Positions 11,580 through 63,210 are shown, counted from the first letter of the stretch. The stretch: 64,000 nucleotides of DNA from Marsupella aquatica (GCA_973895155.1 OZ316891.1:24613899-24677898); one strand, 5' to 3'. The notes: generated by a model from the sequence alone, not told the origin. Numbers and translations are program-made.

Positions 11580-12894
11580 ATCTTCGATGTGTTCCCTTGG
11601 CATAATGAGACAACATTTTTGCTTGCAACAATTTTCTCTTTTCACGTCATCAATTGATGCCTCTGTTGTTTTTGAAATTGCCTTGGTTTCCAACAACCTC
11701 CTCTTCTTTTCATTCGGATCTACTTGATTCCTCTTGTTAAAATTGTACGGCCTTGAACGCAGTACTCCTCTATCACTTACATCTGCATTGAGTTCATCCC
11801 TATCCATTGAGTCCATCCTCTCAGAACCTTCCACCAAAATGTCTGACAAAATTTTTCCATTTGCAACTAGTTTTGTTGAATCAATCCGCCATCAAATCAA
11901 ACTCACGACTCCCTTGTGGATGTTGGGAAAGTATTGTGCTGCCACGACATCTTTCACAGCAATCCCAACATGGTCATCACCAAGAATTTCATCATCAACT
12001 ACTGCCGTCACTTGAGGGACAGTGATCGTTCCAGTGGCAACCATTTTGGTTTGATCCAAACCAGTGTAGAGTTCAACCAACTCTGACATCCAGTTTTCCC
12101 GATGAAAATAGTCACACTTAGTGTCCGTGGTGTTCGCCAAACAAGACTGTGAAACAAAATTTGCCTTGTCCTTTTGCTTCTTAGAGGAAAATTTGTTGCT
12201 CCCATCGATATCAACATTCCATACTTTAATGTGGACGTCAACCACATCCCATAGAACCCAGGAGCCCTTTGCCTCTTCAATTGTTGCAGCTCCACCATGT
12301 GCGTAAGGTAAAGTCTTACTACCATGAATCACATCTGTGATTTTTACACTAACCCGAGACTCACCGAGTAATATGTTATGACATCTCTCCATTGGATCGA
12401 TCTTGAAAACAACTCCAAAGGCCACACAATGGCCAGAGATAAACATTTCAACCTCATCGCCTGGCCTTAGGTTGGTCGAAGCATCCTCCTCTACATTTGC
12501 AACATTATGGATGTTGTTATCTTTTTGAGTCGAACAACTACCAATACTGATGCGTTTTTGAGTAATCTTATTTGTAGATCGATATGCACATGACATATCC
12601 CAAATGACACATGAGTCAATGGCATCATGAAGATTTTCCGCCCTAGGCATTGGAAAAGGGAGCTTCCTGGTCTCACCAAAGGCCTTCTCGATGACCCCAA
12701 TTTGATTCTCTCCCAGCACAATATTTTGAACACTCTCTCGTGGATCTGTCTTTTGAACTGTCCCATTTCCAACGTTGTAACCATCCATTGTCAAGGTCAC
12801 ATCATCGCCCCTAGAAAACCTTTGAGACATCCTTTTCCTATTATCCTCCACACTGAAAAAAATGGATTAAAACCAAACTCATGCAAATATCCTC

Positions 12895-13930
12895 CAATTC
12901 CGGATTTGGACTAGGACCATCCGAGTCTGGATTTGGACCGGGACCATCCAAGTCCGGATTTGGACTGCAATCCTTCGGGTCTGGATTTGGACTACGATCC
13001 TTCGATTCTAGATTTGGACTGGGACCATCCGAGTCCGGATTTGGAACGGGACCATCCAAGTCCGGATTTGGACTACAATCCTCCGAGTCTGGATTTGGAC
13101 TACGATCCTCCGATTCTAGATTTGGACTAGGACCATCCAAGTCCGGATTTGGACCGGGACCATCCAAGTCCGGATTTGGACTGCAATCCTCCGAGTCTGG
13201 ATTTGGACTACGATCCTTTGATTCTGGATTTGGACTAGGACCATCCGAGTCCAGATTTGGACTGGGACCATCCAAGTCTGGATTTGGACTGCAATCCTCT
13301 GAGTCCGGATTTGGACTACGATCCTCCGAGTCTGGATTTGGACCGGGACCATCCAAGTCCGGATTTGGATTGCAATCCTTTGAGTCTGGATTTGGACTAC
13401 GATCCTTCAATTTTGGATTTGGACTGGGACCATCCCAGTCCAAAGTTGGAATTGGACCATCCCAATCCAAACTAGGACTCGGACCATTCCAATCCAAACT
13501 AGGACTCGGGCCAACCCAATCCAAACTAGGACTCGGGCCATCCCAATCCAAACTAGGACTTGGGCCAACCCAATCCGAACTAGGACTTGGGCCATCTCAA
13601 TCCAAACTTGGATTGGGACCATCCAAGTCCAAACTTGGACTCGGACCATCCCAATCCAAACTTGGACTCGGACCATCCAAGTTCAAACTTGGACTCGGAT
13701 GATCCCAATCCAAACTTGGACTCGGACCATCCTAATCCAAAGTTGGACTCGGACCATCCCAATCCAAACTAGGACTTGGACCATCCAAGTTCAAACTTGG
13801 ACTCGGATGATCCCAATCCAAAGTTGGACTCGGATGATCCCAATGCAAAGTTGGACTCGGATGATCCTAATCCAAACTTGGACTAGGACCATCTGAATCC
13901 AAACTTGGACTAGGACCATCCTAGACCAAT
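12895..13930. repeat. Tandem array of ~38 x 27-bp palindromic units (TTTGGACTGGGA-CCA-TCCCAGTCCAAA type)
   Basis: 9-aa periodicity in all translated frames. Perfect inverted repeat with 3-nt spacer at 13418-13444. Confidence 0.92.
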
Positions 13931-14924: not shown

Positions 14925-17900
14925 ATGCCACATGTCATGCTGCCACGTGTTAGAAAGATGGAAGCAAATCGCGTCCTTGTGAAGTCCTACGTGGAAGAAA
15001 CAGAGGAGTTTGACCTCTCCTTTATGAGCGACAGTGTAGAACTGGTACTCAAAGACTCCAGACAATTTCAATCACGAATCCCTAGTAAGTATCCATTACC
15101 TATCCTCCCTAAGTCTTAGAGGACTGGGACCATCCGGGTCCAAAGTTGGACTCGGACCATCCCAATCCAAACTTGGACTCGGATAAGTTGGACTCGGACC
15201 ATCCCAATCCAAAGTTGGACTCGGATGATCCTAATCCATCCAGGAGATTGAATCCCGATTGTAGGAGCAAGTCTAAAACCATCTCAAGTTGGACTAGGAC
15301 CATCCTAATCCAACAAGAGTTATTCAAATGTTTTAAAGATTTTAAGTCTAACATGGATGATGTTTATGATGCAGGGAGCAATCTTGTTGGTTTCAAACCT
15401 GCGATTGCACCGACCCACTGCCTAGACGGATTCTTACTAGATGAGAGATCCCCACGCTTCCGATGGGGGCTTGAGTTCTCAAGAACCCCGCTTAATAATT
15501 AAGTGCCATCAAGCACGATTGAACCTGTTTTGACCTTAAAGTGCAGAGAAAATGATAGCCTGACTTTTGTTTGCGGACCTGTGGTCTCTGTTGGCATTGG
15601 AGGGAGAGGGATGAATTTGGTCATTCTGGAGATGCACGATAGGTCTTGTTGGGTTAAAGTTAACCTTCTGTCAAAGGCATACTCCTTTGAATTCAATGTT
15701 GAATGGCACGCAAGTGGGGAATTGAGCATTTTGTCAATGGGATTTTTCCCAAAGACCTATGACACAAAGAAGTTGGTCGCCGGGGTAACTGGTATGCTTC
15801 CAGTCAACATTATGTATGGGTTTCAATATTTGAAACTCAACATGATGAAGCACCAAGGCAATTTTTCTTTTGCAACTACGTGGATGTTAAGCAATTTACT
15901 TGAGAAAGCTGGATTGTTATCGTTGGAGTCGGAGGAGCCTGGTGTTTTAATTGATAAGGATGTTGCATTTGCTCCCAAGTTTGATTTAGTCAAAGCAAAG
16001 CAATGGATAGAATCTTTGTCCAAGACAAGAAAGCTTCCAGCGGTGAATACAAACCCTGTGCCCGAGCAAGTGCCAGAGAAAGCTCCAGAACCTACAACAG
16101 AGACCGCGGGAACTACAACAGCGACCTCTCAAAGAGCAGTGGGAAAACAAAAACAAAGCCAAAGGAAACCTCCGGTTGAGAAGAAACTTCCAGTTGAGAA
16201 GCCAGTTGAGAAGCCAATTGAGAAGCCGAGTACAAGAAGCCAAGTTGAGAAGCCAATTGAGAAGAAACGTCCGGTTGGGAAGCCGAGTGCAAGTGAAAAG
16301 AGGCCAAGACAGAAGAAGAAACAGAAAATTGACAGTGCCATCATGGATGACACTACAGAAAACCTAACAGTGCATTCACAAGATGTGGACGAGCAGTTGG
16401 ACGCTCCTGAGGAGAAGAAGGTCTTAGAAGGTAGTGAGGTACTACAACAAATGGAGCAATATTATACGTTTGGGATCAATTCGATATTTTCTATTCCCGT
16501 AGAGAGTATTTTCCCTACGTTGGCAAAACTCTGTTACAGAATGTTGAATGCAGACCATGTAAAGGATGTGGCCAATTCCATGATAAGAAATTCGGGGCAT
16601 GAACCACACATAGCAGACTTGATTCCTTACACTGCAAAACATAGAAACCTAATGTAGTATGACAACACGGAATCAGATAGGAGGGACTTTGTAGCAGCCG
16701 TGAAAAAGGGCGAGGTTCAATTCCTTGCCATTAGCGGTCAACATTCGGCCAGAGCAGCCGGATGGATTCAAGAATGGGCAAACAAGGATGCCAAGCTAAC
16801 AACATTGGAAAAAAAGCTGGAATTTTGAAAGTCAAGAATATTATCTCATCGAACACCATCATCAATATTAGTTGAGCATTCAATGCAATCTAATGCGATC
16901 AATAGCACGATGGTGTTTCAGTCATGCTTCAAAAATACAGTCGTTCATGCTAGGCGAGAATTTGTGGAATGTGGAAGACCTGGCCGGCCAAAACATGGGG
17001 ACAACAAAAAAGGCTCAAGACAATCAAAAATTTCAGGTATGAAGTGTTACCGCTTGATGGGTACAATACCGTAGATTCATGCACATTCAATAGAATATTT
17101 CCACTAATATCGCCTAGTTTTGCATTGGATTGGGATGGTCCCAGTCCAAATGGATTCATGCACATTCAATAGACTATTTCCACTGATATCGTCTAGTTTT
17201 GTGTTGGACTATGATGGTCCCAATCCAAATGGATTCATGCACATTCAGTAGAATATTTCCACTGATATCGCCTAGTTTTGCGTTGGACTGGGATGGTCCC
17301 AGTCCAAATGGATTCATACACATTCAATAGATTATTTTTCCATTGATATCGTCTAGTTTTGTTCTAGACTGGGATGGTCCCAGTCCAAACTAAATCATGC
17401 ACATTCAATTAAATATTTCCACTGATACTGTCTAAATCTGTGTTGGACTGGGATGGTCTCAGTCCGCACCTGAGTGCTTTCAAACAATTGAGTTATGGAG
17501 AACTAACAGACTTTCCTTTGCAATTGTAGGATTGGTTGGCTCTTGCAAGAATGACCATGGGAAGGAAAGATTGTCGAAATGTTTACTGGTAACTATTTGC
17601 GGACAATGCTCTTTTTGAGTTATGGAGTTTGGTATGCCAGTTGTGGTTGGATGGGAAACTTCCCGATGGAGCTGGGGTAGAAGGAAATGAGAAGTCTGAA
17701 AAAGCAATTACTGTTGCCATGTTTCGTTGTTTTGATGGTGAGTTGATCTCACAATGAGACATCACAAGAATACTGACGCGGGTGAAGTCAAGAAAGGTAT
17801 TGCTAAAGAAAGATGCCTCTAATAAGTCAGACATGCCATCTATAGAGGAGTTGGCCAAAGATGTGAAGATCGTGCGGAAACTGAAATCCCTTATTGAAGA

Positions 17901-19898
17901 CTACTATTGCACCAAGGATGCAGTGAATTTCCTGGAAAATACTAATTGGGGGAAAGTAGTTGAGGTTCTTCCTACGCTAGCAATTGATTTAGAGTGTTCA
18001 GCAGGTGTCAAAGAGCCGCTGGCGAGGTCTATCTTGCCAACCTTTTAAAGCCAAATCATACGCGGGAGAGCGCAATCTTGCCGACGGCATTGACATTCCG
18101 CCTAGATGATATATACTGCCAGAAATTTGGCGAAGGATCACGTTCTCGGACCCTACCATGGGTTGCATTTTTAGCGACAATGTCATGAAGACCATTGATC
18201 CAGAGTCATTGCAAGAAGCTCCTTTGACCTGCCCTCTTGCCATTGTTGATTTTAGCCGGCTTCCGCAAAAACAATGGACTGAAGCAGAGATTCTTGTTCT
18301 CTTTGAATATATTGTGGAGCTTCCACAAAATCCCACGATTGTTGTGACGATAACAGTTCATCCTGGACAACTTGCATTGAATGTCCATGGTGCCCTTCGT
18401 AAATTGGGACAAGAGAAAGCTTTGACCATTCACATTGAGTATGGGAGTTATTCTCGAGATGATCAACTGCACCCTCATGACTCATGTTGGGGTGGGGGGA
18501 TTGAAGAAGTTATCTTTGCAAGGATTTCTCGAGATGAAGACGTCAATTGGAATGAAGTTTTCAAGCCCAACTATCCAAAGCCAAAATTCTTGTATACTTC
18601 AAAGGATGTTGATTACGAAGTATGCAAGATTGACAAGGGAAAGGGGAAGGCTAAGGAATCAGATGAGGGGACACAAAACGACGACCTAAAAGTGGTTTTG
18701 GACCCGGAAGAGGCCGTCAAGATTATGAATCCCTCAATTTGAGATAGTTGGCAGTCGCGGAGGGTGGGTTAATCCTCATGCCAAACCCATGTGGATGATT
18801 TGAAGGATTATTGAATCCTTGTCAGAATCGGGAGATTTGGTTCTAGATTTTTTCTCCGGTGGCCAAGTCATGAAGACATCATTTTTTTGCGATAGGGAAT
18901 GCTTTGTTTATTGTGACTCTCACTCTGAGAGGCATTTTGTGGAAGCTTTTGCTTCCTACCTTTGCGAGAGAGTTCCCTCACTTAAAGCCCATTGTGAATC
19001 ACTTGCTGAAAATTCTCAACAATGGGCTACCATTGTTGCGGCTGTAGCTATTGCTGTTGAATCTGATGGTTCTGAGTCTGAAGATGTTGCTGACAAAGTG
19101 GCTAAAGGCGTAGAGGCATCAGAGGAGGCATATGTCAAGAATTTGGATGATCGTGTTGGTCAAGGTGAGCCTTACGATGTAGATGATGATATTGGACTTG
19201 CACCAAACCGTTCATCTGGTTTAGATGACATCCCTTTGGGGCCCAATGAAGTTCAAGTTGATGATAACTTGGACAAGGATGATCCCAATCCAACAACGCC
19301 GGGAGGACAAATGGAGCAACTGGACGGAGCAAGGGTTGATACGTTTGATCATCTTTCTTCAACCAATCTGATCAATGAAGGCGCAACGAGGCTTGGAGAT
19401 TCAAATGAAGTTGAAACTAAAGAATTGACTCTGGGGGAGACTGGCGGATTGCCTGACATTCCCATCAATCCAGGAGGAAATGCATCAACGGCTGCTGACA
19501 ACCAGGCAGGTGCTTCAACTTGTCTTGACACACTCTTTTCAGCTTTTGATGACAAATTGGTGTTTGTTCATTCACACTCGGGGAGTCCTATTGTCCTTCC
19601 GCTCTAAAAAAAGAAAGGAAATAGAGTTGGATCAACTAGATGGAGGTCATTGGAACGCGACGCACGATGTTACGTGTGGAAAAGTGGATCAAATTGAGGC
19701 CAAGAAATATCATTGGATGCTGCTCCTTCAATTCTCAATAAGGAGGAGTATAAGAGGGGAGAATTGGGGTTGATAACTCCTATTTGGACTTCACCTTATT
19801 GGGTAGAACAAAGTACTTCAGATGTCAATTTTAAAATCCAACAGGAACTTGGTGCTGACATGATTATTGATGAATACGGATCTCTTATTTCGGAATGA
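14925..19898 (+). pseudogene. Spliced, decayed gene encoding ParB-like domain plus beta-class N4C/N6A DNA methyltransferase-like domain (transposon 1 cargo)
   Basis: ParB-like YRMLNADHVKDVANSM...FLAISGQHSARAA (about 16530-16760). Motif-IV position CPLAIVDFSR (about 18230). Motif X/I NPHAKPMWMI*RIIESLSESGDLVLDFFSGG (18771-18863). GT-AG introns near 15085-15375 and 17037-17529. Several in-frame stops. Confidence 0.7.
17074..17470. repeat. Intronic tandem repeat, ~5 x 79 bp, each with the same palindrome (TTGGACTGGGA-TGG-TCCCAGTCCAA)
   Basis: Units start at 17074, 17153, 17232, 17311 and about 17393, inside a predicted intron. Confidence 0.88.
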
Positions 19899-20382
19899 AA
19901 TTCAACCTTTGACTTTCTATTTATTCACATCAATCTAAAATACTTCTCGGTCTCATAGAATGCGCTCACCAATTAAAGTCTCCATATACGTCTATAGATT
20001 GTGAGGCTTCTAAAAACGGTAAGTAGGTTAATTTTCTTTTTTGTCAGCCATTGTCTTGTATTTTTGGACTGAGACAATCCTAATCCAAAGTTCACTTTTG
20101 GTCTTTTCTCTCCCGGGGTCCTCACTTCTTTTCTTCCAACCCATCACGCGCGAATAAGTATAGGGTTTTTTTATTGGGTTTAGTGAAATACTTTTAAATT
20201 TTTGTTGAAAAACATTAGGGTTATTTTAATCCAATTTTCAGAATGATAAGAATCATAGGGTTTTTTAAAATCAAATATGGGAATATTCTTGGAATATTCC
20301 ATTAAGTTAGGGGTAAAACAATTCCTAAAAAAAACTTTATTGACTTAACTTTTAGGGTGTTTATTCCCCCAAAACTTCGAGC

Positions 20383-21135
20383 GTGATATGGGACACCCCT
20401 TGGATTGAGGCCCCCAAGTTTTCTCTGAGAATGGTGTTTGGTGCACTTGCAGAATCGAGACCTGGTCCCGTCAAGCGGAAGTTGTTGATTTTGGACCTTA
20501 ATAAAATACTTTGGGATTCTATTGAATTCCAAAGCAAGGGCACATCCAGGAATATTGTCACCTCAAGTGGAGTGCATTGGGATAGAAAAAATGATATTAG
20601 TCGCATGTATACAGAACGACCAGGGCTCCATGAGTTTCTAAAGTTGGTTTTTGACAAATTTGACGTTGCAAGTTGGACATGTGCTGGGATACCGCGAACA
20701 ATAAAAATGTTGAACATGATGTTCACTGATGAGGAGAGGTCAAAACTCCAGTTTGTATTCACACACGTGGAAGCTTTTGACACAGGCATTCAAAGGCGTG
20801 ACATTACAAACGGAAAGGCAAATGTGCTACTGAAGGATTTTCAGGTGGTATGGAATGCATTTGGAGATCTATATGATGAAACCAACACCCTCCTTGTGGA
20901 TGACTCCCCCTTTAAGGCATTTGCCAACCCAGACATGACCGGATTATTTCCAGTGCCCTACACGCATGCCAATCATGGAGATAATTTTCTTCTAGCAATT
21001 CTTTGGCCATGTCTTGAGAAATTATCACCTCGGGGGTTTCACTTCCACAAAAATGGCATATCACGTGCGACGAAGGATAGGGTCATTTTATTGGTTCTAA
21101 GGAAAGACTTAAGAATTTTTGTAGAAGAACAATAG
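20383..21135 (+). CDS. FCP1/NIF-family HAD phosphatase-like protein (probably transposon cargo; exon limits uncertain)
   Basis: KLLILDLNKIL (motif I variant), ERPGLHEFLKLVFDKFDVASWT, LLKDFQVVW, NTLLVDDSPFKAFANP. Confidence 0.75.
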   Translation: MIWDTPWIEAPKFSLRMVFGALAESRPGPVKRKLLILDLNKILWDSIEFQSKGTSRNIVTSSGVHWDRKNDISRMYTERPGLHEFLKLVFDKFDVASWTCAGIPRTIKMLNMMFTDEERSKLQFVFTHVEAFDTGIQRRDITNGKANVLLKDFQVVWNAFGDLYDETNTLLVDDSPFKAFANPDMTGLFPVPYTHANHGDNFLLAILWPCLEKLSPRGFHFHKNGISRATKDRVILLVLRKDLRIFVEEQ

Positions 21136-22654
21136 GGTCTTTTAAATTCAATTTTGAGACTTATAAGAACATTAGCATCTTTTTAATCCAATTTTTAGAA
21201 TATTCCAAGAATATTCCAACTTTATAGGGGTTAAAAAATAATTTTTTTTCTTACATTTTAGGGGGTCTAAGGCCTAAAAACGTTGCAGGCAATGGGAGGT
21301 CCCCATATAGTGAGACCCCCGAGACTATCACATGCAAGTGACATTCGATGTTATCTTCTTCTCAACTCTCCAAAGTGGTCTCTTTTGCACATGAAGAGAG
21401 ACAAGGCAAAAAATGAGATTACTTATGATCAACTTAGCAAGAGATTTGCAGCAAAAATTTGGAAGTCACAGTTGACGCATAGTGTGTTGGACCTCAATAG
21501 CAATGAGATCCCTTGGAATGTAAAGCACCGTATATGTAGTTTACGTCATGAGGCGGAACTTGACAATGCACTTGTCAACTCACTTGCTAAATCATTTTTA
21601 GGAAAGGACTATTCATGTCTATATAGAGAAAATCCCAGACACTTTTTGCGGGAGATTATAGCCATTAGGAACAACATTTAGTTTGACATGGGTACATTTA
21701 GTTCCGTGTCGGTAATCACACATCAAAATGTGGTAATATACCGAGAGTGTGCATAACTAAAACAGGCTTCTGCGCTATCACACCTGTCTCCTAGGACTCA
21801 ATTTGATTGGGTATCCTCCTTTTACCTTGGGGGTAAGGGTTTCATACATTATACCCTTATCAGGTTCAGCTCTCTCATGCCTGCACAATAAATCGAGCCA
21901 AGAACACTTAATAATGTCAAAATTGAAACCATGGAATTTATACTTGGGTGGTAAGTTGCAAGGGTTTTTCACATATTACTACTAATTAGCAAACAGAAGT
22001 CAAGCTAGAGTTGGGTCTAGGCTTCTAGAGTGAAACCTCTAGACTCTAACTCTAGGGCCCCACCAAATGTATGCTTATGGAGAGCAGAATTGAGAATCTA
22101 ATGTATGGTACATCAAAATGGATCATGCATGTTGATTTTTGTTATCATTCTATTGCCATTCAAAGAATGAGCATTCAGGCTCGTCATTCAATTCAAAAGA
22201 CAGACATGTTGTGCAGTCTCATTGGTAGAGAGTATCCTGAGTTAGGTTCCTCATTTCTTTGAGGGCTAGCTATAGTCCCCAAGGGTTCACAGGCCATGCC
22301 CCCCTAGAGTAAGCAGGCAAGTGAATATTGAGAAACATATGCTGGGGACTAGATCCTGACACGAACACAAAGATTTAAATCAGGGAATCCCGAGCCAGGT
22401 TTGGAGCCAGCTTTGTGAGGGGCTTGTGTCGCATAACCTTTAATGAAAATACAAACTAAGGTCACAAGAAAGGTTAGAGGACATGGATGGATGCAAATCA
22501 ATCTCAAGTTCTAGATGTCATTCGGCAAGTCTGTCGACTCCCTTCGCTCGAATTCTTCAGACTGGGCTGGATAAGAGGCTCCATTCCAAAGGCAAATGCA
22601 CGGACTAGCTGTACCAAACTCTGTCAAATTAAGGTCAAGTATATGGGTACTTAC

Positions 22655-25600
22655 ATGTAAGTCGTAGTGAGATGATGAACGCAGATGCACGAAATCAGCT
22701 TGGCCATTTCAATCCCCGGACAAATATGAGGCCCAGAACTGAATGGCATGTAACTGTATGGTTTCGGAGTCACCTGCAGAAGTTTCCCAAATCGAAAGAG
22801 GTCGATCAATTCTACTGAGTGAAAGTCTTCAGGCCGGTCAGGTACACCAACTCATTGAGGAAAACAAATTAAATCTGTGATCGTTTAGTTGTCAGTAACA
22901 TCATATCTTTCAATCAAAACCTGACTGAGGACGAAGGTAGTAGTACAGTACTCACATCGAACCGATCGGGGTTGAAACTAACATCGGGATAATTGCCAGG
23001 ATCCGTGTGAATGAAATTAGTCAACGGGGTCACGCTCCAGCCCTTTGGTATTAGATGACCTGCATGAATCAATAGACTTTTATGATCTTAATATGTGAAC
23101 GTGGCACGAGTTTCTTCTCGAACGTATAATTTCATGACTCGCTCATAGAGCTACTACATGTTTTTGTCGAAGAATCAGCTTATATTTCTTGAGAAGCGTG
23201 TGCTGGCAAAGGCCTTTAGAGCTTGATTAATCTGAACGTACCTACATTGAATCCGAACCTAGATATGCATGAAGCTGACAAATTTTGCTGGCTGGGTGCG
23301 TGGGAACTCAAACGCTATGCATTAGCAATTAATCCCATTCAAGAACAACACGCGTAGCTTGCAATAGTAGGATCAGTCACCTTCAAGCTCAAATCACTCA
23401 CCCTCAAACTTAACGTCTTCGGTTGCCTCCTTAAAAAGAACAGGGAGGAGTGTAGTGGTTCTGTGGACTTCGTTGAAGAACTGCATCCGGTAGTTCAGAA
23501 GTAATTATTTAAGTATGCCAATCGCTTGAACTTTCTAGAGTTCTGGTCAACTATGCATCTAATTCTATGTAGGATTGTAGCGGAATTTACCTGCCTACCA
23601 TGCGCAAGCATGGACCCGGTCTCTAGATAGCTTCATATTCGACCAAAGCCCAGTATAATGGCAATCCACTTCGTTTATAACTTCTAACACCCGCAAGCAT
23701 GGACCCGGTTTCTAAATAGCTTCATATTCGACCAATGGCAATCCACTTCGTTTATGACTTCATATTAGACTAGTGTTCATTATATTTTCAGTACACTAGG
23801 GAATCAACTTTGTTTGGTTGTCCAGGGATAATCATGCATGTTACCTTACGAGTGTAAACCATTTTTCTCATATCGTCCCAAGTAAGCCTGGGCCCTTCTA
23901 CGGAAGGGTCCTTGTTTTTGAGAATCTGTTGGTGCTCAGCCTGCTCACATAGTATGAGGGTTAGTATTGTAGAAGATCTGAGAAGAATAGAAGAGATAAA
24001 AGCTGAGAACGACATTGTGCTATAATATTTCAACAAAATACCATTTATGACGTTCAAATATTCTACTGCCATTTCAAGCTCCAGACCTCTAGATATCCAG
24101 GCCATGCCAGATTCAAACCGAGAAGCAAAGCATGCTCCGTACCTGGCAACGGCGAAAGACCTCCGGATAGTCAATCAGATACTTAAGGATCCATACAAGA
24201 GTCGTCGTGGTAGTGTCAGAAGCAGCGAAGTTTATCAAAAACATGTTCTCGGCAAGCGTGAAATCATCGAGATGCTTCAGCTCTTCTAGCCCTTCAGGGT
24301 CATCCCGAGCTGCCAGTAGAGCTCCGAAGAAAACGCCCTCGAAAGTCTTCTGGCCCTTCGTCGACTCAATCAGAGTTTGGAAGTATGCTACCAAATTTGC
24401 CCGTGCCTGATGAAGACAACAACCAATCAATCAAATGAGGTGTTGAGGACAACACAAATGCACAGATTCGTTCCCGTCCAAAATTATCATTCTCGACCTC
24501 GCTTTCGAATACTCCGGGAATGATTTCAGATTTGACAAAGTCTTCGTTGTTGAAATCTATCTACCTGTATCTGACTTAGCCTTCAGTTGGCCGAGCAGTG
24601 TTCAAGAGCCTCCGGCAAGATCTCAACTTCAAGTCCAAACTTAGCCTCCGGCAGGATTCAATTCCAAGTCCAAACTGCTGGCCAAGCATCCGACAGTTTT
24701 CGTACCTTCATGCCTGTGCTAAACGTCGTTCCTGGAAGATTCACTGGCATTGCTGTCAATGTCCGCGAGGCCTTATTAAAGTCTTCCAAATTCTTCCTTC
24801 CTTGTGGTGAGCTACTACTGTTCCTATCTCCGAATAGGACCCAGTTGGCAGCATCCCACGTAAGCTGCCAGTTGACATAAACGTCACATCAGTGCCAAAG
24901 TGAAATTTCAAGAATCTTAAGAGAATAAAATTAAGACGGGAGAGTTAATTTGAAGAATACCGCAGACGAATTGAACAAGAAGAGAAATCGCACAGAAGTA
25001 CTAAGCACTCGAAAAAGAAAACGAATGCGCTGAAGAATTATAACGAAAATGAATTGAACAGAGTGATTAAAGAAAGAAAGCTCTAGTAAGGATTGAAAAT
25101 GAACGGCCCACTTTTTGCACTGCACCACGTGCAACAACAGTCCCAGCGCGCACCCACGAGGCCATGTGTTCGAGAAGAATGCTCTCAAAACTATGGACCT
25201 GATCCCGGAGACCTTCTGGACCAACAGATTTCAGGATCAACTTCTTGACAGACATATGCCGTGGACCCTCCTGGAGCATAAACGTCTCGGGTCCAATGCT
25301 TCGCTTGAAGCTTTCGGGGTATGCCCGTTTGAAGAGGTGAGGGTTCGTATTGACGAATTTGACGAAATCCGGAGTTGTTCCACATATCGTTGGCCGTAGA
25401 AATACGTTCGTTTTAAACGTATTTCCATACCTGCATTCATCAAGTCACAACTTTCAGCCAAGTGCTGAAGATGTTCTAAACATCCCCACTTGCTACCAGT
25501 TCCTTTGTAATTTGCAATTGAATCGCTGCCCCCCAATAGTCTGACATCAACCCGAGCTGTTGACCATTCGAAGCCGTGGCGCTTAGATATTTCAGACTAG

Positions 25601-26250
25601 TCCACTTAAATATGTCAGACTAGTCTTTGAACGGGGGACATGCATCCTCCTACATAGGGACATTGCCCACCAAAATTTCTTCCTTCACTTTCGCTAGTGA
25701 ACTGGACGCATTTCTCCCGACTGGGAGAGAGTGAGTGACAAGCTAGAAAGCGAGATGACAAGCCACAAAGCAAGATGCCGAAGGGACATATTGCAGGAAT
25801 GATTGAGTTGCTAGCTAGCTTGCCCTTGTCTAAGTGCCCACGTACCATTTTAGGCAAGGAGAGATCCATAATGATAATGATGGGACATCATTGAGCAGGC
25901 GCCAAGCCAAAATCATTACATGAACAAGAGATCTACCTGCAGAAGCCAATTCAAGACCATGACTGTTCAATTCATGAATAAGAGATTAATTACCTGCTGA
26001 CGCGAGAATAAGCAAATTCTTTTGGATCACGGAGCAAGTCGAATGATTCCCCAACGATAGGCCAGCCCAGCGAGCCTTTGGGCAGCACGGCATCGGTCCT
26101 TCGCAATGAGTACAGAGTGTACGATCGCTGCGCCCACAGCAGAATAGCCCCGCCCAGCACCACGGCCAGCACTATCGATAATGATGTCGACAGCCCTGAG
26201 TCCCCCATCTCTGCGTATCTCCAAAATGTGGACAGCACCGACTCCCCCAT
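22655..26250 (-). CDS. Cytochrome P450, CYP85 clan, CYP707-like; at least 8 exons (about 26250-25994, 25430-25112, 24864-24706, 24406-24143, 23940-23845, 23480-23402, 23059-22956, 22773-22655; last exon unresolved)
   Basis: N-terminal membrane anchor, LPKGSLGWPIVGES, I-helix FAASDTT, ExxR (EVHR), PDRF and heme motif FSSGPHICPG. Canonical GT-AG introns keep the frame open. Confidence 0.9.
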
Positions 26251-27607
26251 CGCTGTGACTGTCTCAAGCTTGAGAACTTAGACTCGCCACAGGTGCTGGA
26301 CTAAGTCAGTGAGATGTGTGTGCAATTTTTAAATCCACAGTTCTTGTAGCTTGAATGTACTCTGGAAGCACAATCCTTGAAACAGAATTCTCGTGTGCTC
26401 TTCTTCAGATGTGAATTGTTTTCAGTGTTTTATCTCCCACCGACGTCGCAGGACCCAGAGCTCTCTGGTGTCACACCGAAGAAGAAAAAGCCGCTAACAC
26501 CTTACCTAAGCCCCTTTGTCATTGGTCACCCACGCATCCACAATCGCACTATTTGACTAACCTTCATGCTGGTCGCATAATTGCACCGGTCATTACCAAC
26601 CCATAATCAAACGCAACAATTGCATTGACATTATGTTGTCGATTCCGCCAGACCTCGTTTGTCGGTACTCATTTGTAAGAAAATGATGCTCCCTTGGACC
26701 CTGATTTGTAAGAAAACGAGGTTCCCTTGGACCTAAAGGTTGGTCTTTTGAAACCACATGGAACACGTTTCTAATTGTAATAACTTCATGCTCATAAATT
26801 CAATATTTTTTTGTTTTGAGCATGTGCTAGAGGGGTAGGTAAGCTACAATTCCATGAAAGTGACCTTGAATTTTTGGTTTGGTTGAAGTATTCATCATTG
26901 AATGCCAAGGGGTAAATTATATTATATTAATTTTCATTGTGTTAATATGAAATATTAGGGCTTATGTTTTGTTTTGTCTCCTCCTTCTCTAGTTGCCCTT
27001 GCAGATGAAAACTAAAAATAATTTTAAGATTTATAATCATCAAGATACAAGCCCAAAATTCCCAGGGACCACCAAAATGTGGCCCATGGGAGCACTATGT
27101 CTAACATGGTGGTCCATCCAGGCTTCACTTTCGATTTGCATTCATTGTAACCATTATTCTGTAGGTAAGAATTTAAAGTCATTGTTTTGTGCATAATTGA
27201 CATCATGAGCTAGCCAGGAATGATGGAATGACATCAATAGGAATGATTACTCATGGTTCTTTCCGTTTGCAAATTTTGGGCAAATTTTGGTGGGACCTAG
27301 AGTCACTGTCTAGAGGTCTCACTGTAGAAGCCTGGGCCTCAACTCTAGCTTATGTTGACAATTTATTAGTAAGATTTTCCAGTCATGTTATAGTTGCCTC
27401 TCATCACGTACTATGTTCCTTAAATAACTTTGTACATTTGGGCACTTACATACACACTTTTGGACATAAGAATTGTATATTCGGGTGAAGAAAAATGAAC
27501 ATTTGTGTTGCATAAAATGTAGGTTTGGGCCTAGAAATTTGTAAATTTTGGCAAAGAAAATATTAATTTGGATAATTTGGTCTCATGGCACTCACTCAGA
27601 GGCTTTA

Positions 27608-27954
27608 CACCGTGCTAGGAAACAGGAAACAGATTTACTGTTATGAGCAAAACTTTACTGTTACGAACAAAAATAAAATATAAAAAATGTCTCAATAAAA
27701 ACTTAAATTTTTCAAAATATTTTAAAAAACGATCATTTTTGACTAGCGCCAGGCGCTACTATTACTAGTAGTAGTAGTAGCCTAGGCGCTACTATTACTA
27801 CTAGTAATAGTAGTAATAGGGGCGCTAGTAAAAAAATGTCAAAAATACAAACCAAAAAAAATTAAAAAATTCCAAAAAAACAATTCTCAAAAAATTCTCA
27901 TCCATTTGCTCTTTATTGTTTGCTATTTCCCTTTTCCTGTTTCCTAGCATGGTG
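27608..27954. mobile_element. Putative MITE with ~22-bp terminal inverted repeats
   Basis: CACCGTGCTAGGAAACAGGAAA...TTTCCTGTTTCCTAGCATGGTG, AT-rich interior with internal palindromes. No clean TSD. Confidence 0.6.
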
Positions 27955-30688
27955 ATTATACCCCTCACTCACCTGGCCAGTGAAAGGATGTTTGAAATAC
28001 CACATTGAACTTACATTCAAAGTGGGGCTTTTAGGCTCAAACATTTCAGTTTTGAACTAGAGCCACATTTCAGCTTTGAACTACATTCAGGATTAGTGTT
28101 TCAACAAATGACTCACATTCCAAATTTAAGAGTCAAGTTTTAACTCACATAAATCATTCGCAAGGTAACACCCCAATTCTCTGTTGCAATAGAGATCCCC
28201 AAAACGGGATTGTCATTGCCTTAGTATTATACTGCAACAAACAGGTAGGAACTAGTTGTTGGTTGCCGTTTAGGATGATTTTTTGGTTGGTGTTGTCGTC
28301 GGTAGTCTAAACAACAATCAAATGCTTCAACTTCCACTTTCAGTCGCTCCACATACAGTTCAAGTACTACAGGAGTCATTCCTGAAACAGATTTTGTGAC
28401 AGAAAGAGAGCGCGATGTCCTCCTCGGTAGTTCAGAGCGACCGCATTCAGATCGATATACTCACATTCACAGTCCCTCCATTGATTTTTCATACTCTTGG
28501 GTTCATTGGAGGCTTGAGACGCCCTTGACGAAGGTTTTTTTTAAACATTCATTTTCAGACAGTGTTGTAGACTCTCTGCCTAACTACATTCGATTTGTCC
28601 CTCCCTCAGTACACTTCAGAATTCCCCCAGATTCTGCATTCAAGTTGAAAAGCCAAGTCTTTGTCCGACCCTTACTGTCCTCCTTCGGGGTCTATATATA
28701 CTGAGGCTCCCGAGAATAGCTACTCCTTGCATACAGCATCCTAGTTAATCAGATTATAGAATAATTAAGGACCATGTCATCAGCGTCACAGTTGGGTTAG
28801 TTCTACATAGCAGCGTGACTGTGCTTTTGGGGGGTTTGGTATGGAATGAAGAGAGAAGGGTGGGGTACTCTGCTTGGAGAACTCTATACACAGTTTGGGA
28901 ACTCTATACACAGTTTGGGTTCGATTTCCCACTATAGGCTTTGATCCCATTACCTTAAATAGAACTATGGCAACAACTCAGATTCATTAAAAGTGTGCAT
29001 AGCTAAAGCATGGCAGGATCAGATTCAAAGTAGTGTGCATACCAGCTATAGCATCTGCAAAATATTTTGGCTGAGTTGCATGTTATTCAATAAAGAGTGC
29101 AATCTGCTGTCCTAGAGAACATGTTTTGGCTACGAGTTGTGGCAGTGTGCAAGTTTTGAGCCTTCTTTCACTACTGTTTTGCAACTGATGGCTTGGAATT
29201 TTTTTAGACATTGCTAATCCTTGGCCAAAATATAAACTTTAATACTTTCAAAAGGGGAAATATGTTCAGCATCCAGAAGATCTAATTTTTTTGACTAATG
29301 GGATGTGGAAACCATTCTTATCACATTTTTGGGAGAAATGTCTATTGCAAAACCTCATTAAAAACTTAATTTGTCTAAAAACAATTTGACAGAGAAAATT
29401 GTAAAATTTGTGGTTTGCCATTTAGCATTGTTGGAAAAATAGCAATGTCGGAACAATGTCTAATATCTGTTCTCCTATTTTTGTTACTTTTTCATTTCAA
29501 AAATAATGCATACATTGCAAAGTCAGTGTTTATATCAGAATGTTCACAACATTCTTAAATTTGCATCACAAAATCAGTTGATGTTCATAAGCACCCTGAA
29601 ATTTTTTGTTAGTCAGGTATAAAATAGGATTAATTATAATTCAAAAAGTAAGTGAATTGGTTACAAGTCAGATTGAGGTTTAAATTTTGCCCTTACTCTT
29701 TGTTATTTGACATGTTATTTTTTAATTTTCTCAAGCTTTTACCATTCCTGGGTCTAACCATTTTTTGGGTGTTGCAACATACACAAACAGCCATGCGTAA
29801 TTGTTGCCATAAACGTCATCATTTGTGCTTGTGACAAAAACTGCTGAAATGGTGCAACCGTAGGCCAGGAATTTGGAATGGACTTATCATGGGGGTCCAT
29901 AAAGCTAATTAGCTCAAATACCAGTGCTTACAAAGAGGAATTCGCAGGGCTCCCTGCACCCACCTGGATTCCTCTTCATGTCTCTTCTCACAAGCATAGT
30001 CTAAATATCAACCAAAAAATGACATGCGGTTCACTTGCCTGAGTAGGTCATGACCGGTAGACTTTGATCGCAAATTATACTATAGATAGAAAATGAACAC
30101 CAAGTTTTGATGCATAGTCTTCTCCAGTATGACTGCTCTGATCTGTTTGGCATCTCAGAATATCTTTGGAAGGATAGGCCTTAAATAGGAATGGAACATA
30201 GCTACTTTCCATTGACTGAAATGTTGAGCTACAAACTTTTGCCAGAAAACAGCAAAATTCTGTTACATGTTACCCAAAGTGTTCACTCTCTCAGATTCAG
30301 GAAAACCGTGTCTATTCATCACTATGAATGGTGCAGACACTGGAAAGTGTAGCTTCCTTGTGCAAGGCACACACGTGCATGTGCAGACGAACAATGATGA
30401 AGCTATTGAGCTTTTATTTAAAAATGACTTTGAAATGAATGAAAACAATACAAGCACATAGAGCCCCCTGGTCGCTATGTTCTCTCGAAGAACCTCGTTC
30501 TAGGAGGCAAAGCTAATTAAAACCTGCCCAGTGAGAGATTCTTCAGCAATTTTGGCCTGATCTATAAGCTACGAGTTCAGTTCTATTTAGTGAATACTTT
30601 AGATAGTAGACACTATTTAGCCAACACTTACAATTAATCATGTCTTACAGGGGGTGGGGGTCTATGCTAACGTAGAGTTTTATGGGCT

Positions 30689-31771
30689 TCAGAAATATTC
30701 GCCATGATACCAATCACCCAGGAGCTCCTTGAAGCGGTAGCGGCTTCCACCAAGGTGCCAGCTGATGTATCCCTGGTAATACTGCTGAATTTTTTTCTTC
30801 CATTCTAGAGAGCCACTCTCTTCAATGATGGCCATGACGCGAATCCGTTGGTCCACCAAGTAGTCTGCTACATCCCTCAGGGCGTCCAGACGGCTCAGCT
30901 TTTTCACCTTGGCATTGATGAGAATAGCGATGGCGGTCTCCCCGTCCTGCACCTCCTTGTAGAACGACAGCACGTCGTTGATGAGGTTGAAGCCTTCGAC
31001 CATCTCCGGCACCAGCGGGTAGAGGTAGTTGTAGTAGAAACGATCGTCCGTCTTCTGCGAGGTATTGCTACCGCTGGTGTCCATGATGACGTAGCTCGCG
31101 TAGGCTTCCGAAATCCCCGACTTATAGCGGAGGAAGTTGCAGAAGAGGCGCATCTCTGGCATGTAGTTTATGGGGTTCTCGTGGTAGTGTACCTCCAACA
31201 GGTTGCCCTGCAGAAAGTCTAAGGTGGATTTCACCAGAATGCTCAGCGTGCGAGGATGTGCCGGGAAGAAGGGATTCTGCTCCGTCCGCAGGTAGTGCAT
31301 GAGGTCCATAAGCACCGGGTGCAGATCTCCTCGACCGGGGTAGGCTGCGGCATACCCTTGCGGGTCACACATCTTCATCTGAAACAACGCAAGGTCCTTC
31401 ACGAACACATCCTTAGCTTCGCCGGTGAGGCTCTGCGACAAGTCGTCGATTGTTATCGTCAGAGCCGTGAGGTGCGCGAGAGTCACCTGCACGTCCACGG
31501 GGTGGAGCTTGATGACGAGCCCCGGAAAGCCGGAGCTAACTCTGATCACTTCAGGATCTATGTAGGACCCGCAAAGGGCGGTGACCGCGGCACCGACTTG
31601 GAGGCAGCTATCGGGTCTGCAGGCGTCTGCAGAGTTGTCGAAGCACATTCGGTCCAGGAAGTCCAGGTAGATGGAGCGCAGTTCATCAGTGAAGGGCCCT
31701 GCATCCGGCTGGCTAACAAGAGAGTTGTGAGTTTCACTTTGAGGAGAAGCCATGGCTACGTACGCACTCAC
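30689..31771 (-). CDS. Microbial terpene synthase-like protein (MTPSL), fungal trichodiene synthase (TRI5)-type class I terpene cyclase; intronless
   Basis: 360-aa intact ORF. Asp-rich IDDLSQ, LRYKSGISEAY, NSE motif NDVLSFYKE and C-terminal WH...RYR. Confidence 0.9.
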   Translation of the reverse strand: MSAYVAMASPQSETHNSLVSQPDAGPFTDELRSIYLDFLDRMCFDNSADACRPDSCLQVGAAVTALCGSYIDPEVIRVSSGFPGLVIKLHPVDVQVTLAHLTALTITIDDLSQSLTGEAKDVFVKDLALFQMKMCDPQGYAAAYPGRGDLHPVLMDLMHYLRTEQNPFFPAHPRTLSILVKSTLDFLQGNLLEVHYHENPINYMPEMRLFCNFLRYKSGISEAYASYVIMDTSGSNTSQKTDDRFYYNYLYPLVPEMVEGFNLINDVLSFYKEVQDGETAIAILINAKVKKLSRLDALRDVADYLVDQRIRVMAIIEESGSLEWKKKIQQYYQGYISWHLGGSRYRFKELLGDWYHGEYF

Positions 31772-32259
31772 AAGTGCTGGAATCTTGTTGCAAGCTCAAA
31801 AACCAACGGAGAGCCTGGCAGGCTGGAGATCAAACACAATGAGAACTGGTTGCGAATGACTGGTGGCCGCAACCGAGGGCTTTTCAATTGAGGGACCTTA
31901 CAGAACGAGAACAAAAGTTGTCAGGTCACTCATGTTTAGATCTTACTACACTCAGGACATATACCTAACCCACAAGTCCATTTAAAGTGTCTCCTGACAA
32001 AAAAGGTGGTCAGGTCATGAATATAATGACAAAAAAGTGGCCAGGTAATGAATATAATGAAGTCTAAATTTTGGCCAAACTACCGCATGTGCATTTTGTC
32101 CTTTCAAAACATCACCCCCATAGATGAACTAAACTTTGGCCAAAACTACCACATAAGTATTTTGGGGACCCAACTTTGTCCAAAATGAACACAAGTATTT
32201 GGGGGAACCACACCAGCCCAAGTAGGGTTCCGAGAAGTCCGGTGCACAAGTGATCTGAT

Positions 32260-33644: not shown

Positions 33645-36161
33645 CTATTTCCGTTCATGATTGTCTTCTTCTATGCTTTCAGTGTGGACTTCAAACTCAA
33701 CAGGCACCAACGAATGTTGGCCGAACACGAGAAAGTACGGGCTGTGACTCGTAGTAGTCTTGTAAGCCAGATTATACAAATACACTGCTGCGTACAACTT
33801 GTCATCCCAATCCGTTTTGTGTGCGGCTACTGTCTTGTTGAGGATCTTCCCGATGATACCATTGGCTCTTTTTGTCAGCCCATTAGCTTTAGGATGATAC
33901 GAGGTAGTCTTGCGGTGCTTGACTAGGTAACGCTCCGTAAGCTGGGCTATGGTATCATTGAGGAAGTGTGTTCCACGGTTGCTTACTAACTCCAAGGGCG
34001 GCCCAAACCGGGTGAAGATCTGCTCGTATAAGAACTTGGCGGTGGTTACAACGTCGTCCTTTACCGTAGCCGTGCTTTGACCCACTTGGTGGAGTAATCT
34101 ATAGCTAGCAGAATGTACTTGCATCTTCGTCGTCGGGTAACGGGAGTGAACGGTCTGATATAATCGATACCCCACTTTTCAAAAGGTGCCAAGGGGAGCA
34201 CGGACGTGAGAGGGTGATGATGAGATTGTCGTGGGGCCCCAGCCCGCTGACACAGGTCACAGCCCTTGATGAAACGTTGTATATCCCAATGCAACATAGG
34301 CCACCAATACCCTGAATCCAGAATCTTTTGGGCTATCGTGATAGCCGCAAAATGGGCTCCAGCTTCTTCTTCATGCAAGGCCCGCATAACAATGAGCGTC
34401 TCCTTGTACTCTAAACAGCGTCGTAGCTTCCCATTAACGCCTTCCTTATGTAGGTGACCCTGTATCATAGCATACGGCCCGGCCTTCCGTAAAAACACAA
34501 CGGCGGCCTCCTGATTGATGTCGTCGGGGATGCGGCCTGTTAAGAGGAAGGTGATTATTGAGTCGTACCACGTAGGCGCTCCCGCCCCTACGTGGAATAA
34601 CTCCTCGTCCGGAAAAGTATCATTGATTGGCTGATCGACTGGTACGCCGTCCAACCTTGAAAAGAAGTCGGCATTGAGATGTGCTTTTCCTGGCCAATCC
34701 TGAACTTCATAGTTAAATTCTTGGAGAAGTAGCACTCACTGGGCTATCCGTCCTATCACATCCGCTTTGTTGACCATGTACTTTAGGCTATCATGATCCG
34801 TGTGGAATATGACCTTGTATCCAAGCAGGTAGTGTTGGAACTTCTTGCATGAGTAGATTATTCCTAGAGTTTCTCGATCAGTGGGAGAATAATTTTTTTG
34901 GCTGTGAATAGTTGACGGCTAGAAAAGTAGATGGGGTGGTCACGTCCATCCTCATCAAGCTGACTGAGTACGGACCCAATACAGAACCCTGACATATCGA
35001 CGTACACATGGAACTCCTTATTCTAGTCCGGGGTGACCATGATAGGTGCAGTTGTGAGTCGTTTACGGAGTTCTTTGAAAGCAATCCATCTCCTGGGAGT
35101 CTCCTCGATCACTGCGTCCTTCTTCATCATCTTAGTTAAGGGTAACGCAGTTTTAGCAAAATCTTTGATGAACCGACGATAATACCCTACACAGCCCCAA
35201 AAGGATTGTACCGCTTTTTGATCTACGGGAAACACCACCGCCATCCAAGCCGCGAACTTCTCTTGGTCCACCTCGATACCCTGTTTGGACACACGATGCC
35301 CGAGTAACACTCCTTCCTCTACCCCAAAAAAACATTTGGCGGGATGTAGCTTGAGGTTAACCTCTCAGCATTGTTGTAGCGTACACCGTAGATGTTTGGG
35401 GTGCATGGCGACAGTTCCAAAGATGGCAAAGTTGTCGATAAATATTTCCAGAAATTCCCATAAGAAACCGTGGAAGATATTCATCATGAGCCGCTGAAAC
35501 ATGGCCGGGGCGTTACACAGCCTGAACGGCATTCCCCAAAATGCAAATGTCCCCCATTTCGTAGTGAACGTTGTTTTGAGCTGATCCGAGAGGCGGATCC
35601 AGATTTGATTATAACCCGAATACTCGTCAAGGAATGTATAAATTTTGTTTTGGGCTACCATATCAAGAACCATATCCGTGAATGGTAACGGGTAATGGTC
35701 TTTCCGGGTTGCGTCGTTCAGCTTACGATAGTCCTGACAGATCCGGATCTTAGGTTTTCCGTCCGTACCTCCCTTCTTTGGTACAATGACAATGGGAGAA
35801 ACCCAGTCGCTCGCCATTACCGGGTAGATGATATGTGCGGCAAGGAGGTGATCAATTTCCTCCTTCACTAAGATGGAGTACCTTGGGTTCATGCAACATT
35901 GTCGCTGTCGTACTGCATGGGCCCCAAGGTTCAAATCGATCGTGTGTTCTCCCAACTTGGGGGAGACTCCCGTCAAATTGTGATGGCTCATGCAAACACA
36001 TCTTCATATTCCTTGAGCTTGGATTTTTCCGCCTCCCTCGTCAGAGCGTGTCCCAGGTTAAAAGACTTATCCATCCCAATGGTGTACTTCTGGTAGTGCT
36101 CCTTTCTTATGACTTCCACCTGGTTCCGCAAGCTCGGGTCTAGGCTTGCATCTAGCTCCGC
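33645..36161 (-). pseudogene. pol: Decayed Ty3/gypsy (non-chromovirus-like) pol: RT - RNase H - integrase
   Basis: RT DYRKLNDATRKDHYPLPF...FIDNF, RNase H fragments, integrase zinc-finger remnant (YWWP..CDLCQ) and core WGIDY / SNRGTHF / YHPKANG. Order RT-RH-IN, with frameshifts. Confidence 0.9.
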
Positions 36162-44446: not shown

Positions 44447-45078
44447 AGGGGTCGTGTACTTCATCAGTTATCAATGAGTTTCATCAGTGACTGATATCAG
44501 TCCAACACCGGAACTCAGCGAATTAGCTGAGATCAATTCTTCTGGGGCACAACCCAATCCACAACCCAATCGCAGTCCGCGCCATTGTCGGCGCCTCTTT
44601 GAGGTTGGATCGGGTACTTTACTTTGACCATTTCTTATGTCAACTGCCTCTCTGACATTAAAGGAGAATATAAAGTTTCAATCTTGGCGGCCTCTCTGAG
44701 ATTTCCTCGAAGTTCAGTTGAATCTCAGCGAGCCCTGCCGAGATTCAACTGAAATTTGAGGAAAAAAAACTTCTCACACAGGGTCTTCGATATATCATGG
44801 GGTGTCGCTACTAAATCTCAAATAGGATCCATACAACACATCGTACAACAGAGTCCATACAACACGTCCCTTTCAAAGACTCATCTCAAAGACCCTCACC
44901 GACTTATCCAAGAGAGCTCGACATGACATTGAAAAACAACACGGGGTCCAGCGTAGAAAGTACAGGACAAGAACATAACCTTTGGAGGAAATTTTTATTT
45001 TACTTTGTATACAACATGTTGCTCTGTTGTGAAATATTCACAAATTGAATTCACAAAGGCAATCCATCAATCCTCTAT

Positions 45079-45903: not shown

Positions 45904-46439
45904 AAATTACTCTTCGGAATTGGAGCTTGACAAACTTATGCTTGCATGGTGAGTTTGGGGACTATCACTATCACTTCCTACCGAGCTACTCTCATCCGAT
46001 TCAGCCTCTTCTGCCCTATCATCGACAAATTTGAGAGTCTTCCTTGTTCTCTCTTTCACAAAATGAGCAACTCTTTCTTCATGATATGTATCAGCGTAGC
46101 ACGGTAGGCTTGACTTATCCGGAGAGAATAATGTTGAAGCTTCCTCCCAAGCGAGCTTCACAAGTCGTCTGTCCTGTGTGTCCCATTCCTCGGTTGCCGA
46201 CTTGGTGGTCCTGTCGGGAACTGCTACTAAGTTATACTTAAATCAAATCATGTATTGCGCCGAAATAGACGGATCACAAGAACAAATTTGAGGCAAGTGA
46301 GCCCATGTGGACACCCCAGATAATCCATTGAGTTGCCTTTCGAGATAGATCTCAGAGAGGCTAGCCAAGATGTATTTTTGTCCCTCCAGACGCATCTAAG
46401 GCCCTACGTGGACTTGCCAGTAGAAGTTGACGTGGCCAG

Positions 46440-46810: not shown

Positions 46811-46841
46811 TCCGCTGAAATACTATGGGACAATATTAAAA

Positions 46842-63206: not shown

Positions 63207-63210
63207 TTTT

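Follow-up and report, generated by a model that had tools for sequence, protein, structure and literature searches.

The 64,000-nt stretch of Marsupella aquatica DNA analysed here (GCA_973895155.1, OZ316891.1:24613899-24677898; hereafter the window, with positions counted from its first letter) contains two open, co-oriented genes, both on the minus strand and both called from six-frame translation: a terpene synthase (TPS; 31753-30689) and a cytochrome P450 (P450; 26250-21778). The TPS stop codon and the P450 ATG are separated by 4,438 bp. We judge the case for a functional two-step pathway pair, in which the P450 would act on the TPS product, to be evenly balanced. A preliminary description of the locus had reported two intact genes 4.4 kb apart in an island walled by transposons, and both points are borne out, the first by the open frames, common strand and spacing, the second by reverse transcriptase (RVT) and integrase pieces, a NIF open reading frame (ORF) within inverted repeats, a Ulp1 ORF and kilobase repeats. 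The left limit given there, position 22655, proves to be merely the donor site of intron 8 of the P450 gene, a ninth exon at 21880-21778 having been overlooked. The features of the pair are as follows.

30689-31753, minus strand: TPS, an intronless fungal-type (TRI5-fold) MTPSL; ATG at 31753, TGA at 30689; 1,065 nt, 354 aa
26251-30688, no strand: spacer of 4,438 bp without a Pfam-level ORF, on the 3' side of TPS and the promoter side of the P450
25994-26250, minus strand: P450 exon 1, with the start codon, predicted membrane anchor (residues 20-38) and proline-rich hinge
25112-25430, minus strand: P450 exon 2, with the B-C region and substrate recognition site 1 (Y123, F127, M137)
24706-24864, minus strand: P450 exon 3
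24143-24406, minus strand: P450 exon 4, with the I helix and its acid-alcohol pair D309-T310; PF00067, E 4.6e-9
23845-23940, minus strand: P450 exon 5
23402-23480, minus strand: P450 exon 6, 79 nt, with the ExxR motif (369-372)
22956-23059, minus strand: P450 exon 7, 104 nt, with the PERF-type motif (422-425)
22655-22773, minus strand: P450 exon 8, with the heme-binding loop and axial Cys (F437 to G446), of H-x-C-P-G type; PF00067, E 8.8e-7
21778-21880, minus strand: P450 exon 9 and stop codon, beyond the range of the preliminary description

The P450 model has nine exons totalling 1,500 nt and encodes 499 aa, with its sole stop at the terminus; all eight introns, of 182-774 nt, have GT-AG ends. 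Exon 9 lies 774 bp past the intron 8 donor (22655) and was picked among 27 acceptor candidates. This choice was judged by what we take to be the usual pattern of a P450 C-terminus, a typical ending being seen for the 774-bp candidate only; the nearer candidates, at distances of 93, 313 and 557 bp, were dropped for want of such an ending. A divergent contig from one DNA run (X1) joins position 21888 to 22339, 59 of its letters lying on the side of exon 9. This divergent copy thus has the same exon 8-exon 9 layout minus 450 bp of intron, which supports the placement of exon 9. Near-identical contigs from the public DNA runs X1 and X2, which belong to one study, extend over the P450, the spacer and TPS, and none of the contigs listed for the two runs spans both genes; no RNA data set was listed for the locus, an outcome that speaks neither for nor against expression.

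TPS is clearly a fungal-type (TRI5) MTPSL, as had been proposed. It scores 54.7 bits against PF06330 (TRI5; cut-off 25.2), and the TPS Pfam scan gave no match to the plant TPS beta-domain PF01397, so that a single class I alpha-domain is present. Its motifs are an Asp pair (D103-D104), R-x-K-S-G at 209, an NSE motif at 259-267 (N259-D260-x-x-S263-x-x-K266-E267) and an RY motif (R338-Y339); the third Asp of the Asp motif is absent, as it is from Anthoceros MTPSL7. The coding region has a GC content at third codon positions (GC3) of 0.72. The best word-search match is Anthoceros agrestis MTPSL7, 46% identical over 333 aa, and an exhaustive search yielded 262 proteins at E 0.001, seven of them at 1e-30, of which the four named by taxon are A. 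punctatus MTPSL6 and MTPSL4, Marchantia polymorpha FTPSL8 and one M. paleacea protein. No orthologue of TPS above 46% identity was found among the full-length library proteins. Two further library proteins, P0012 and P0013, are fragments with apparent frame breaks that are 61-65% identical to parts of TPS; they are nearer to it than any named MTPSL, and their sequences suggest decayed copies in the same or a related lineage.

A quick tree was built from 48 rows, leaving out 11 short rows, two fragments and matches P0060-P0154; in it, TPS lies within a 12-row clade that also contains Anthoceros MTPSL4/6/7 and Marchantia FTPSL8 and has an SH-aLRT of 100. This clade holds eight named bryophyte proteins and three others besides TPS, and it is separate from the remaining 36 rows, among which the three named by organism are all fungal. 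Within the clade, a position of TPS nearer to the hornwort proteins than to those of Marchantia has weak support (86). A fungal-type MTPSL family of Marchantia is reported to derive from a gene transfer to the bryophytes' last common ancestor (PMC12890914), and the quick tree suggests that TPS stems from the same ancient transfer. The microbial origin claimed for the cyclase therefore stands as regards the fungal type of synthase, with an ancient origin and no recent transfer. Fungal contamination and recent transfer were considered and ruled out by the position of TPS inside a plant clade; the adjacent gene is an intron-bearing P450 of plant type, so TPS sits in plant DNA.

The predicted structure agrees with this assignment. 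An AlphaFold model (pLDDT 83.8, 10-row alignment) is all-helical and aligns best with the fungal sesquiterpene synthases SydA (Z 29.2; root-mean-square deviation 2.6; 293 residues aligned) and trichodiene synthase (Z 25.9; 3.3; 300 residues), other class I cyclases scoring lower (Z 22.0 or less); an Atlas search with library protein P0001 returned fungal TRI5 clusters at 0.95-0.96. At the 16-21% identity seen in the structural alignments, the product of TPS cannot be inferred from its fungal relatives. The conserved domain begins near residue 22, and TPS is without the N-terminal extension of about 90 residues, S/T/R-rich and poor in acidic residues, that MTPSL6 and MTPSL7 carry. Because this extension is lacking, TPS is predicted to be cytosolic and likely to make sesquiterpenes from a C15 substrate. 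Of the mono- or sesquiterpenoids first suggested as products, sesquiterpenes are thus favoured and monoterpenes are less likely. The functional MTPSLs of Anthoceros are all credited with sesquiterpene synthase activity in a review (PMC13364417), and Marchantia FTPSL2 and FTPSL3 are described as sesquiterpene enzymes (10.1101/2022.06.03.494633). The single coding exon of TPS falls within the range of 0-7 introns given for MTPSL genes (PMC6779861).

Judged from its sequence, the P450 is clearly a member of the CYP85 clan and is predicted to be anchored in the endoplasmic reticulum (ER). All core motifs are kept, namely the anchor, proline-rich hinge, I-helix D309-T310, ExxR, PERF-type motif and heme loop (437-446), and PF00067 matches three of the eight exons scanned, two of them above the cut-off. 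In searches of the PDB, exon 8 best matches CYP90B1 (E 9e-6) and taxadiene 5-alpha hydroxylase (E 0.004), exon 2 best matches CYP120A1, CYP90B1 and taxadiene 5-alpha hydroxylase (E 0.01-0.06), and exon 4 gave no clan-informative match. We take all three of these enzymes to belong to the CYP85 clan.

The heme loop reads H-I-C-P-G and is thus of the CYP707A-like form H-x-C-P-G. A search for six H-x-C-P-G variants in a table of rice P450s gave five rows, all five CYP707A, and the rows shown there for CYP85, 87, 88, 90, 722, 724, 728 and 733 have R or T at this position, never H (PMC5764023 Table S1). Word-based searches returned no named CYP707A, either with exon 2 (one partial protein from 92 candidates) or with exons 4 and 8 together (one partial protein from 172 candidates), which is weak evidence. 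P450s are conventionally assigned to one family at identities of at least 40% and to one subfamily at at least 55%. The further motifs that we presume to be typical of CYP707A were not confirmed in literature text. With the published motif table and these presumed motifs as its basis, derivation of the P450 from the CYP707 (abscisic acid [ABA] hydroxylase) lineage is likely, in keeping with the CYP707-like P450 named in the preliminary description.

Residues of the putative pocket bear on whether ABA is still the substrate. A docking study describes contacts of ABA with K78, F88, F243 and L312 and an aromatic residue at position 74 (PMC3598710). Ungapped PDB alignments fix the register of the P450 solely against CYP90B1 and CYP120A1. 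In the register that we assume, position 74 is the aromatic residue of a [YFW]-P-x-S motif, K78 and F88 correspond to F127 and M137, F243 corresponds to F305 in the I helix, and L312 corresponds to L377, the Leu after ExxR, these last two being kept. The residue four past Y123 is Phe both in the P450 and in its relative P0003, which also shares the Met, and the I-helix Phe is absent from the close relative P0004. If the assumed register is right, the ABA-binding Lys and Phe are replaced and two of the four contacts are changed; the anchor for the carboxylate would be lost, leaving a pocket suited to a hydrocarbon. A conserved ABA 8'-hydroxylase is unlikely because, in this assumed alignment, Phe takes the place of the ABA-binding Lys. 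An ABA-responsive MpCYP707A is reported from Marchantia (10.1101/2024.11.26.625412), and the accessible part of PMC9953472 carries no mention of CYP707.

The P450 also has several divergent copies. At 80% likeness, runs X1 and X2 contain up to four to six contigs with another letter at single sites, and one library relative is 69% identical to it over exon 2, another 89% over exon 4; in the 89% relative, three of the seven changes lie within residues 305-312 of the I helix (p 0.026, post hoc). The several variants per site point to paralogues, and a relative sampled alongside could account for some copies. Because of these divergent copies, a lone conserved ABA hydroxylase is unlikely, as had been anticipated, and the P450 has probably diverged from ABA catabolism, as far as its residues and copies indicate. 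Contigs that match the window over 22400-32000 (genes and spacer) have depths of 36-85 in X1 and 167-453 in X2, and the divergent P450 contigs listed have depths of 12-22 and 33-81, respectively. The depth contrast could reflect several near-identical TPS-P450 units or a mixed sample, contig depth being no copy number. A comparison of exon with intron depth at 80% likeness (26 of 30 bins, four repeat bins dropped; rho 0.72 in X1, 0.21 in X2, p 0.30) was left unused, the depth of contigs being no basis for ranking the parts of a gene.

Pfam scans covered 33 long ORFs, 82 short ORFs (33-142 aa) from the island and its surroundings, and 132 ORFs of 75-199 aa elsewhere in the window. Among the long ORFs, the cut-off was reached by TPS, the NIF ORF, retrotransposon integrase and reverse transcriptase pieces (34064-36003, 41901-43955), and the Ulp1 protease. 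No third enzyme gene was found, with none of the 82 short island ORFs and one of the 132 others (an integrase) at the cut-off, a result that genes with short exons outside the island could escape. Among the ORFs scanned across the 64 kb, TPS and the P450 are the only genes recognised as coding for host-type enzymes. The surrounding features are as follows.

27608-27954: small element with 22-nt inverted ends, in the spacer
21889-22338, no strand: stretch of about 450 bp in intron 8 that holds a high-copy repeat and is skipped in one divergent P450 copy
20143-21740, no strand: left wall, a repeat region
20356-21132: NIF-domain (NIF/FCP1-like phosphatase) ORF; Pfam NIF, E 1e-13
33648-36003, minus strand: right wall, a broken long terminal repeat (LTR) retrotransposon pol with RVT_1 and Integrase_H2C2 (34064-36003) and a weak rve
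41901-44460, minus strand: second retrotransposon pol, with rve, SH3_retrovirus and RVT_2
45082-45906, minus strand: Ulp1 protease ORF, from Pfam

The repeat in intron 8 is likely an insertion of the miniature inverted-repeat transposable element (MITE) type; a 55-nt piece that is 80% complementary to this element, in inverted orientation, lies in the spacer at 27284-27338. The NIF ORF, which is flanked by perfect 20-nt inverted repeats and 180-nt direct repeats (20143-21239), is likely borne by a transposon. By the domain usage that we take as diagnostic, the right-wall pol is presumably Gypsy-type and the pol at 41901-44460 presumably Copia-type. The Ulp1 ORF and several ORFs of 150-350 aa with no Pfam match occupy 45082-50273 (minus strand) and 54310-57472 (plus strand), and they are likely DNA-transposon cargo. 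Self-BLAST revealed kilobase repeats at both window ends, 1-8620 and 58547-63207, which consist of nested copies, 83-98% identical, with coiled-coil ORFs of 369, 281, 737 and 372 aa; these ORFs have no Pfam match above the cut-off, and the element is possibly an unclassified retroelement ORF. A tandem repeat rich in Gly, Ser, Pro and Phe occupies 12857-13930 and 15120-15238, with two open frames on opposite strands, and 17758-18045 (plus strand) weakly resembles a family of Caulimovirus DNA-binding proteins (E 7e-4, under the cut-off), probably by chance.

In the proposed pathway, TPS would ionise cytosolic farnesyl diphosphate, the presumed substrate, with Mg held by the Asp and NSE motifs, and would release a sesquiterpene; such Mg-dependent ionisation is described as established class I chemistry (PMC9169658). 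The sesquiterpene would then reach the P450, predicted to be ER-anchored and likely of CYP707 descent, which would hydroxylate or further oxidise it with electrons from a reductase presumably encoded elsewhere. The predicted compartments, the clan and the pocket change are compatible with such a two-step pathway, and its role might, as a guess by analogy with known roles of bryophyte terpenoids, be in defence. In its fullest form, the reading is that the locus holds a functional, possibly locally amplified pair of a TPS that early land plants acquired from fungi and a P450 recruited from the ABA-degrading CYP707 lineage, which has lost the carboxylate-binding Lys and oxidises a sesquiterpene hydrocarbon; this fuller version we put forward tentatively, as possible and short of probable.

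Several observations weigh against the pathway reading. The genes are co-oriented and hence have no common bidirectional promoter, and the 1.25 kb upstream of each gene have no BLAST word in common at E 1; a promoter motif scan yielded nothing telling. The CYP707 link draws on one published motif table and presumed motifs, and K128 adjoins F127, so that a shift of one residue would restore the Lys. Some 40 bp past the P450 stop lies the edge of a high-copy repeat (loose ends of matches at 21707-21741), which may impair the transcript. The X1 contig at 31562-31989 differs from the window by five letters and one gap, the place of the gap not being shown, and the one change listed within the gene for the X1 contig over the TPS start (31616) is a substitution. 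Acceptor-like AG sites lie upstream of the TPS ATG, and an upstream coding exon is possible. Neighbours that are not co-expressed, termed 'pseudo-BGCs' (after biosynthetic gene clusters), are described as a known outcome (PMC9298681).

Foremost among the alternatives is that the two genes are neighbours by chance, both of them working, with the P450 tailoring some other metabolite and the adjacency arising from transposon-driven dispersal of multi-copy families. Both families are indeed multi-copy, the region is rich in transposons, the lack of common upstream words would be expected, and fungal-type MTPSLs of Marchantia are reported to have duplicated in association with transposons (PMC12890914). 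With 7-32 MTPSLs, 30-150 P450s and 19,000-25,000 genes, of which numbers only the 7 and the 32 come from that paper and the rest are assumed, a P450 would lie beside some MTPSL by chance in about 5-40% of genomes, an illustrative figure. The matched solved members of this P450 clan act on terpenoids or sterols, however, and when only such P450s are counted the estimate for a 32-MTPSL genome drops from about 40% to about 10%; in addition, the gap is 4.4 kb and the 64-kb window holds no other recognised host enzyme gene. The 159 pattern matches of a metagenome scan led to 10 loci; these are 24-34% identical to TPS, none has a similar P450 at E 0.01, and all are too distant to inform on the question. 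Chance adjacency is in our view a real possibility, if not one to be expected.

It is unlikely that one or both genes are silent recent duplicates on the way to decay, whose open frames would reflect recent origin and not use. Frames of 499 and 354 codons without a stop or frameshift, GT-AG ends at 8/8 introns, the kept core motifs and window-identical contigs that cover much of the P450 in X1 and X2 all argue for intact genes, against which stand the repeat edge about 40 bp past the P450 stop, the insertion in intron 8, the frame breaks in the fragmentary TPS relatives P0012 and P0013, and an exon 7 one codon short of the 107 nt that we presume for this clan. Still less likely is an ABA 8'-hydroxylase unrelated to TPS, be it the CYP707A orthologue or a redundant paralogue: the H-x-C-P-G motif, the existence of MpCYP707A and the retention of F305 and L377 in the assumed register would suit it, but the several divergent copies, the change of K78 and F88 to F127 and M137 in that same register, the missing I-helix Phe in P0004 and, as weak evidence, the two word searches without a named CYP707A do not.

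Bryophytes make a wide range of oxygenated sesquiterpenoids. The P450s that tailor these compounds in bryophytes are described as co-expression candidates (10.1101/2022.06.03.494633), and a P450 adjacent to an MTPSL is a directly testable candidate for such an enzyme, a cheap lead and no more. If the two-step pathway is real, a fungal-derived synthase and a native P450 of a hormone pathway would have been assembled into one pathway, the first unit of this MTPSL-P450 kind from a land plant; CYP707 would become one more CYP85-clan family drawn into specialised metabolism, with a CYP707-derived subfamily of terpenoid-tailoring enzymes. The locus also suggests a simple rule for genome mining in non-seed plants. 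Should the pairing fail, the locus holds two ordinary members of known families.

Among known enzymes, TPS is most like Anthoceros MTPSL4/6/7 and M. polymorpha FTPSL8, with which it shares the clade, 37-46% identity, the single alpha-domain, the Asp pair without a third Asp, and the NSE and RY motifs, the N-terminal extension setting MTPSL6/7 apart. These hornwort proteins are the nearest named synthases, and the liverwort oil-body setting initially proposed finds no support in the sequence. Likeness to the fungal synthases SydA, CLM1 (longiborneol synthase) and trichodiene synthase extends over 293-305 residues (Z 25.0-29.2; sequence E 2e-10 to 5e-6), whereas identity in these structural alignments is 16-21% and TPS belongs to a plant-specific clade. 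The P450 resembles CYP707A ABA 8'-hydroxylases in its CYP85-clan matches and heme motif and differs from them in its several divergent copies and, in the assumed register, in the replaced ABA-binding Lys and Phe.

As a pair, the locus is comparable to the MpMTPSL2-MpCPT5 mini-cluster of M. polymorpha, in which, again in a non-seed plant, the gene next to an MTPSL codes for a terpenoid enzyme not homologous to it (10.64898/2026.07.16.738752). The partner there is an upstream substrate supplier arranged head-to-head across a 1,556-bp bidirectional promoter, and the pathway is plastidial, yields monoterpenes and is reported as proven by knockouts (10.64898/2026.07.16.738752). In contrast, the partner here is a P450, co-oriented and 4.4 kb away, the predicted compartments are cytosol and ER, and the pathway is a proposed one. 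A sesquiterpene synthase with an oxidising P450 is found in Dictyostelium discoideum (discoidol to discodiene; cited in 10.64898/2026.07.16.738752); that pair, as described, is from a social amoeba, has a bidirectional promoter and involves no plant CYP85-clan P450. No MTPSL-P450 pair of a land plant was found in the literature searched, subscription journals and preprint supplements, which may list Marchantia pairs, being outside the search.

TPS-CYP pairs are described as common in flowering plants and as associated with MITEs; in the eudicot EAS-EAH (capsidiol) pair, as here, a synthase adjoins a P450 with transposons or MITEs nearby, and the momilactone cluster of the moss Calohypnum, with a diterpene synthase, two CYPs and a dehydrogenase, shows that such loci occur in bryophytes (PMC9298681). 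The eudicot pairs and the moss cluster use typical plant TPSs, unlike the fungal-type TPS of the present locus, and the usual P450 partners of TPSs are given as CYP71 and CYP72, CYP85 going with oxidosqualene cyclases (PMC9298681). A conservative definition of a biosynthetic cluster is three genes (PMC9298681). With two enzyme genes in the 64-kb window, the locus falls short of this definition, and the term 'cluster' applied to it at first was overstated; as adjacent metabolic genes of distinct origin, TPS and the P450 fit the description of a TPS-CYP gene pair.

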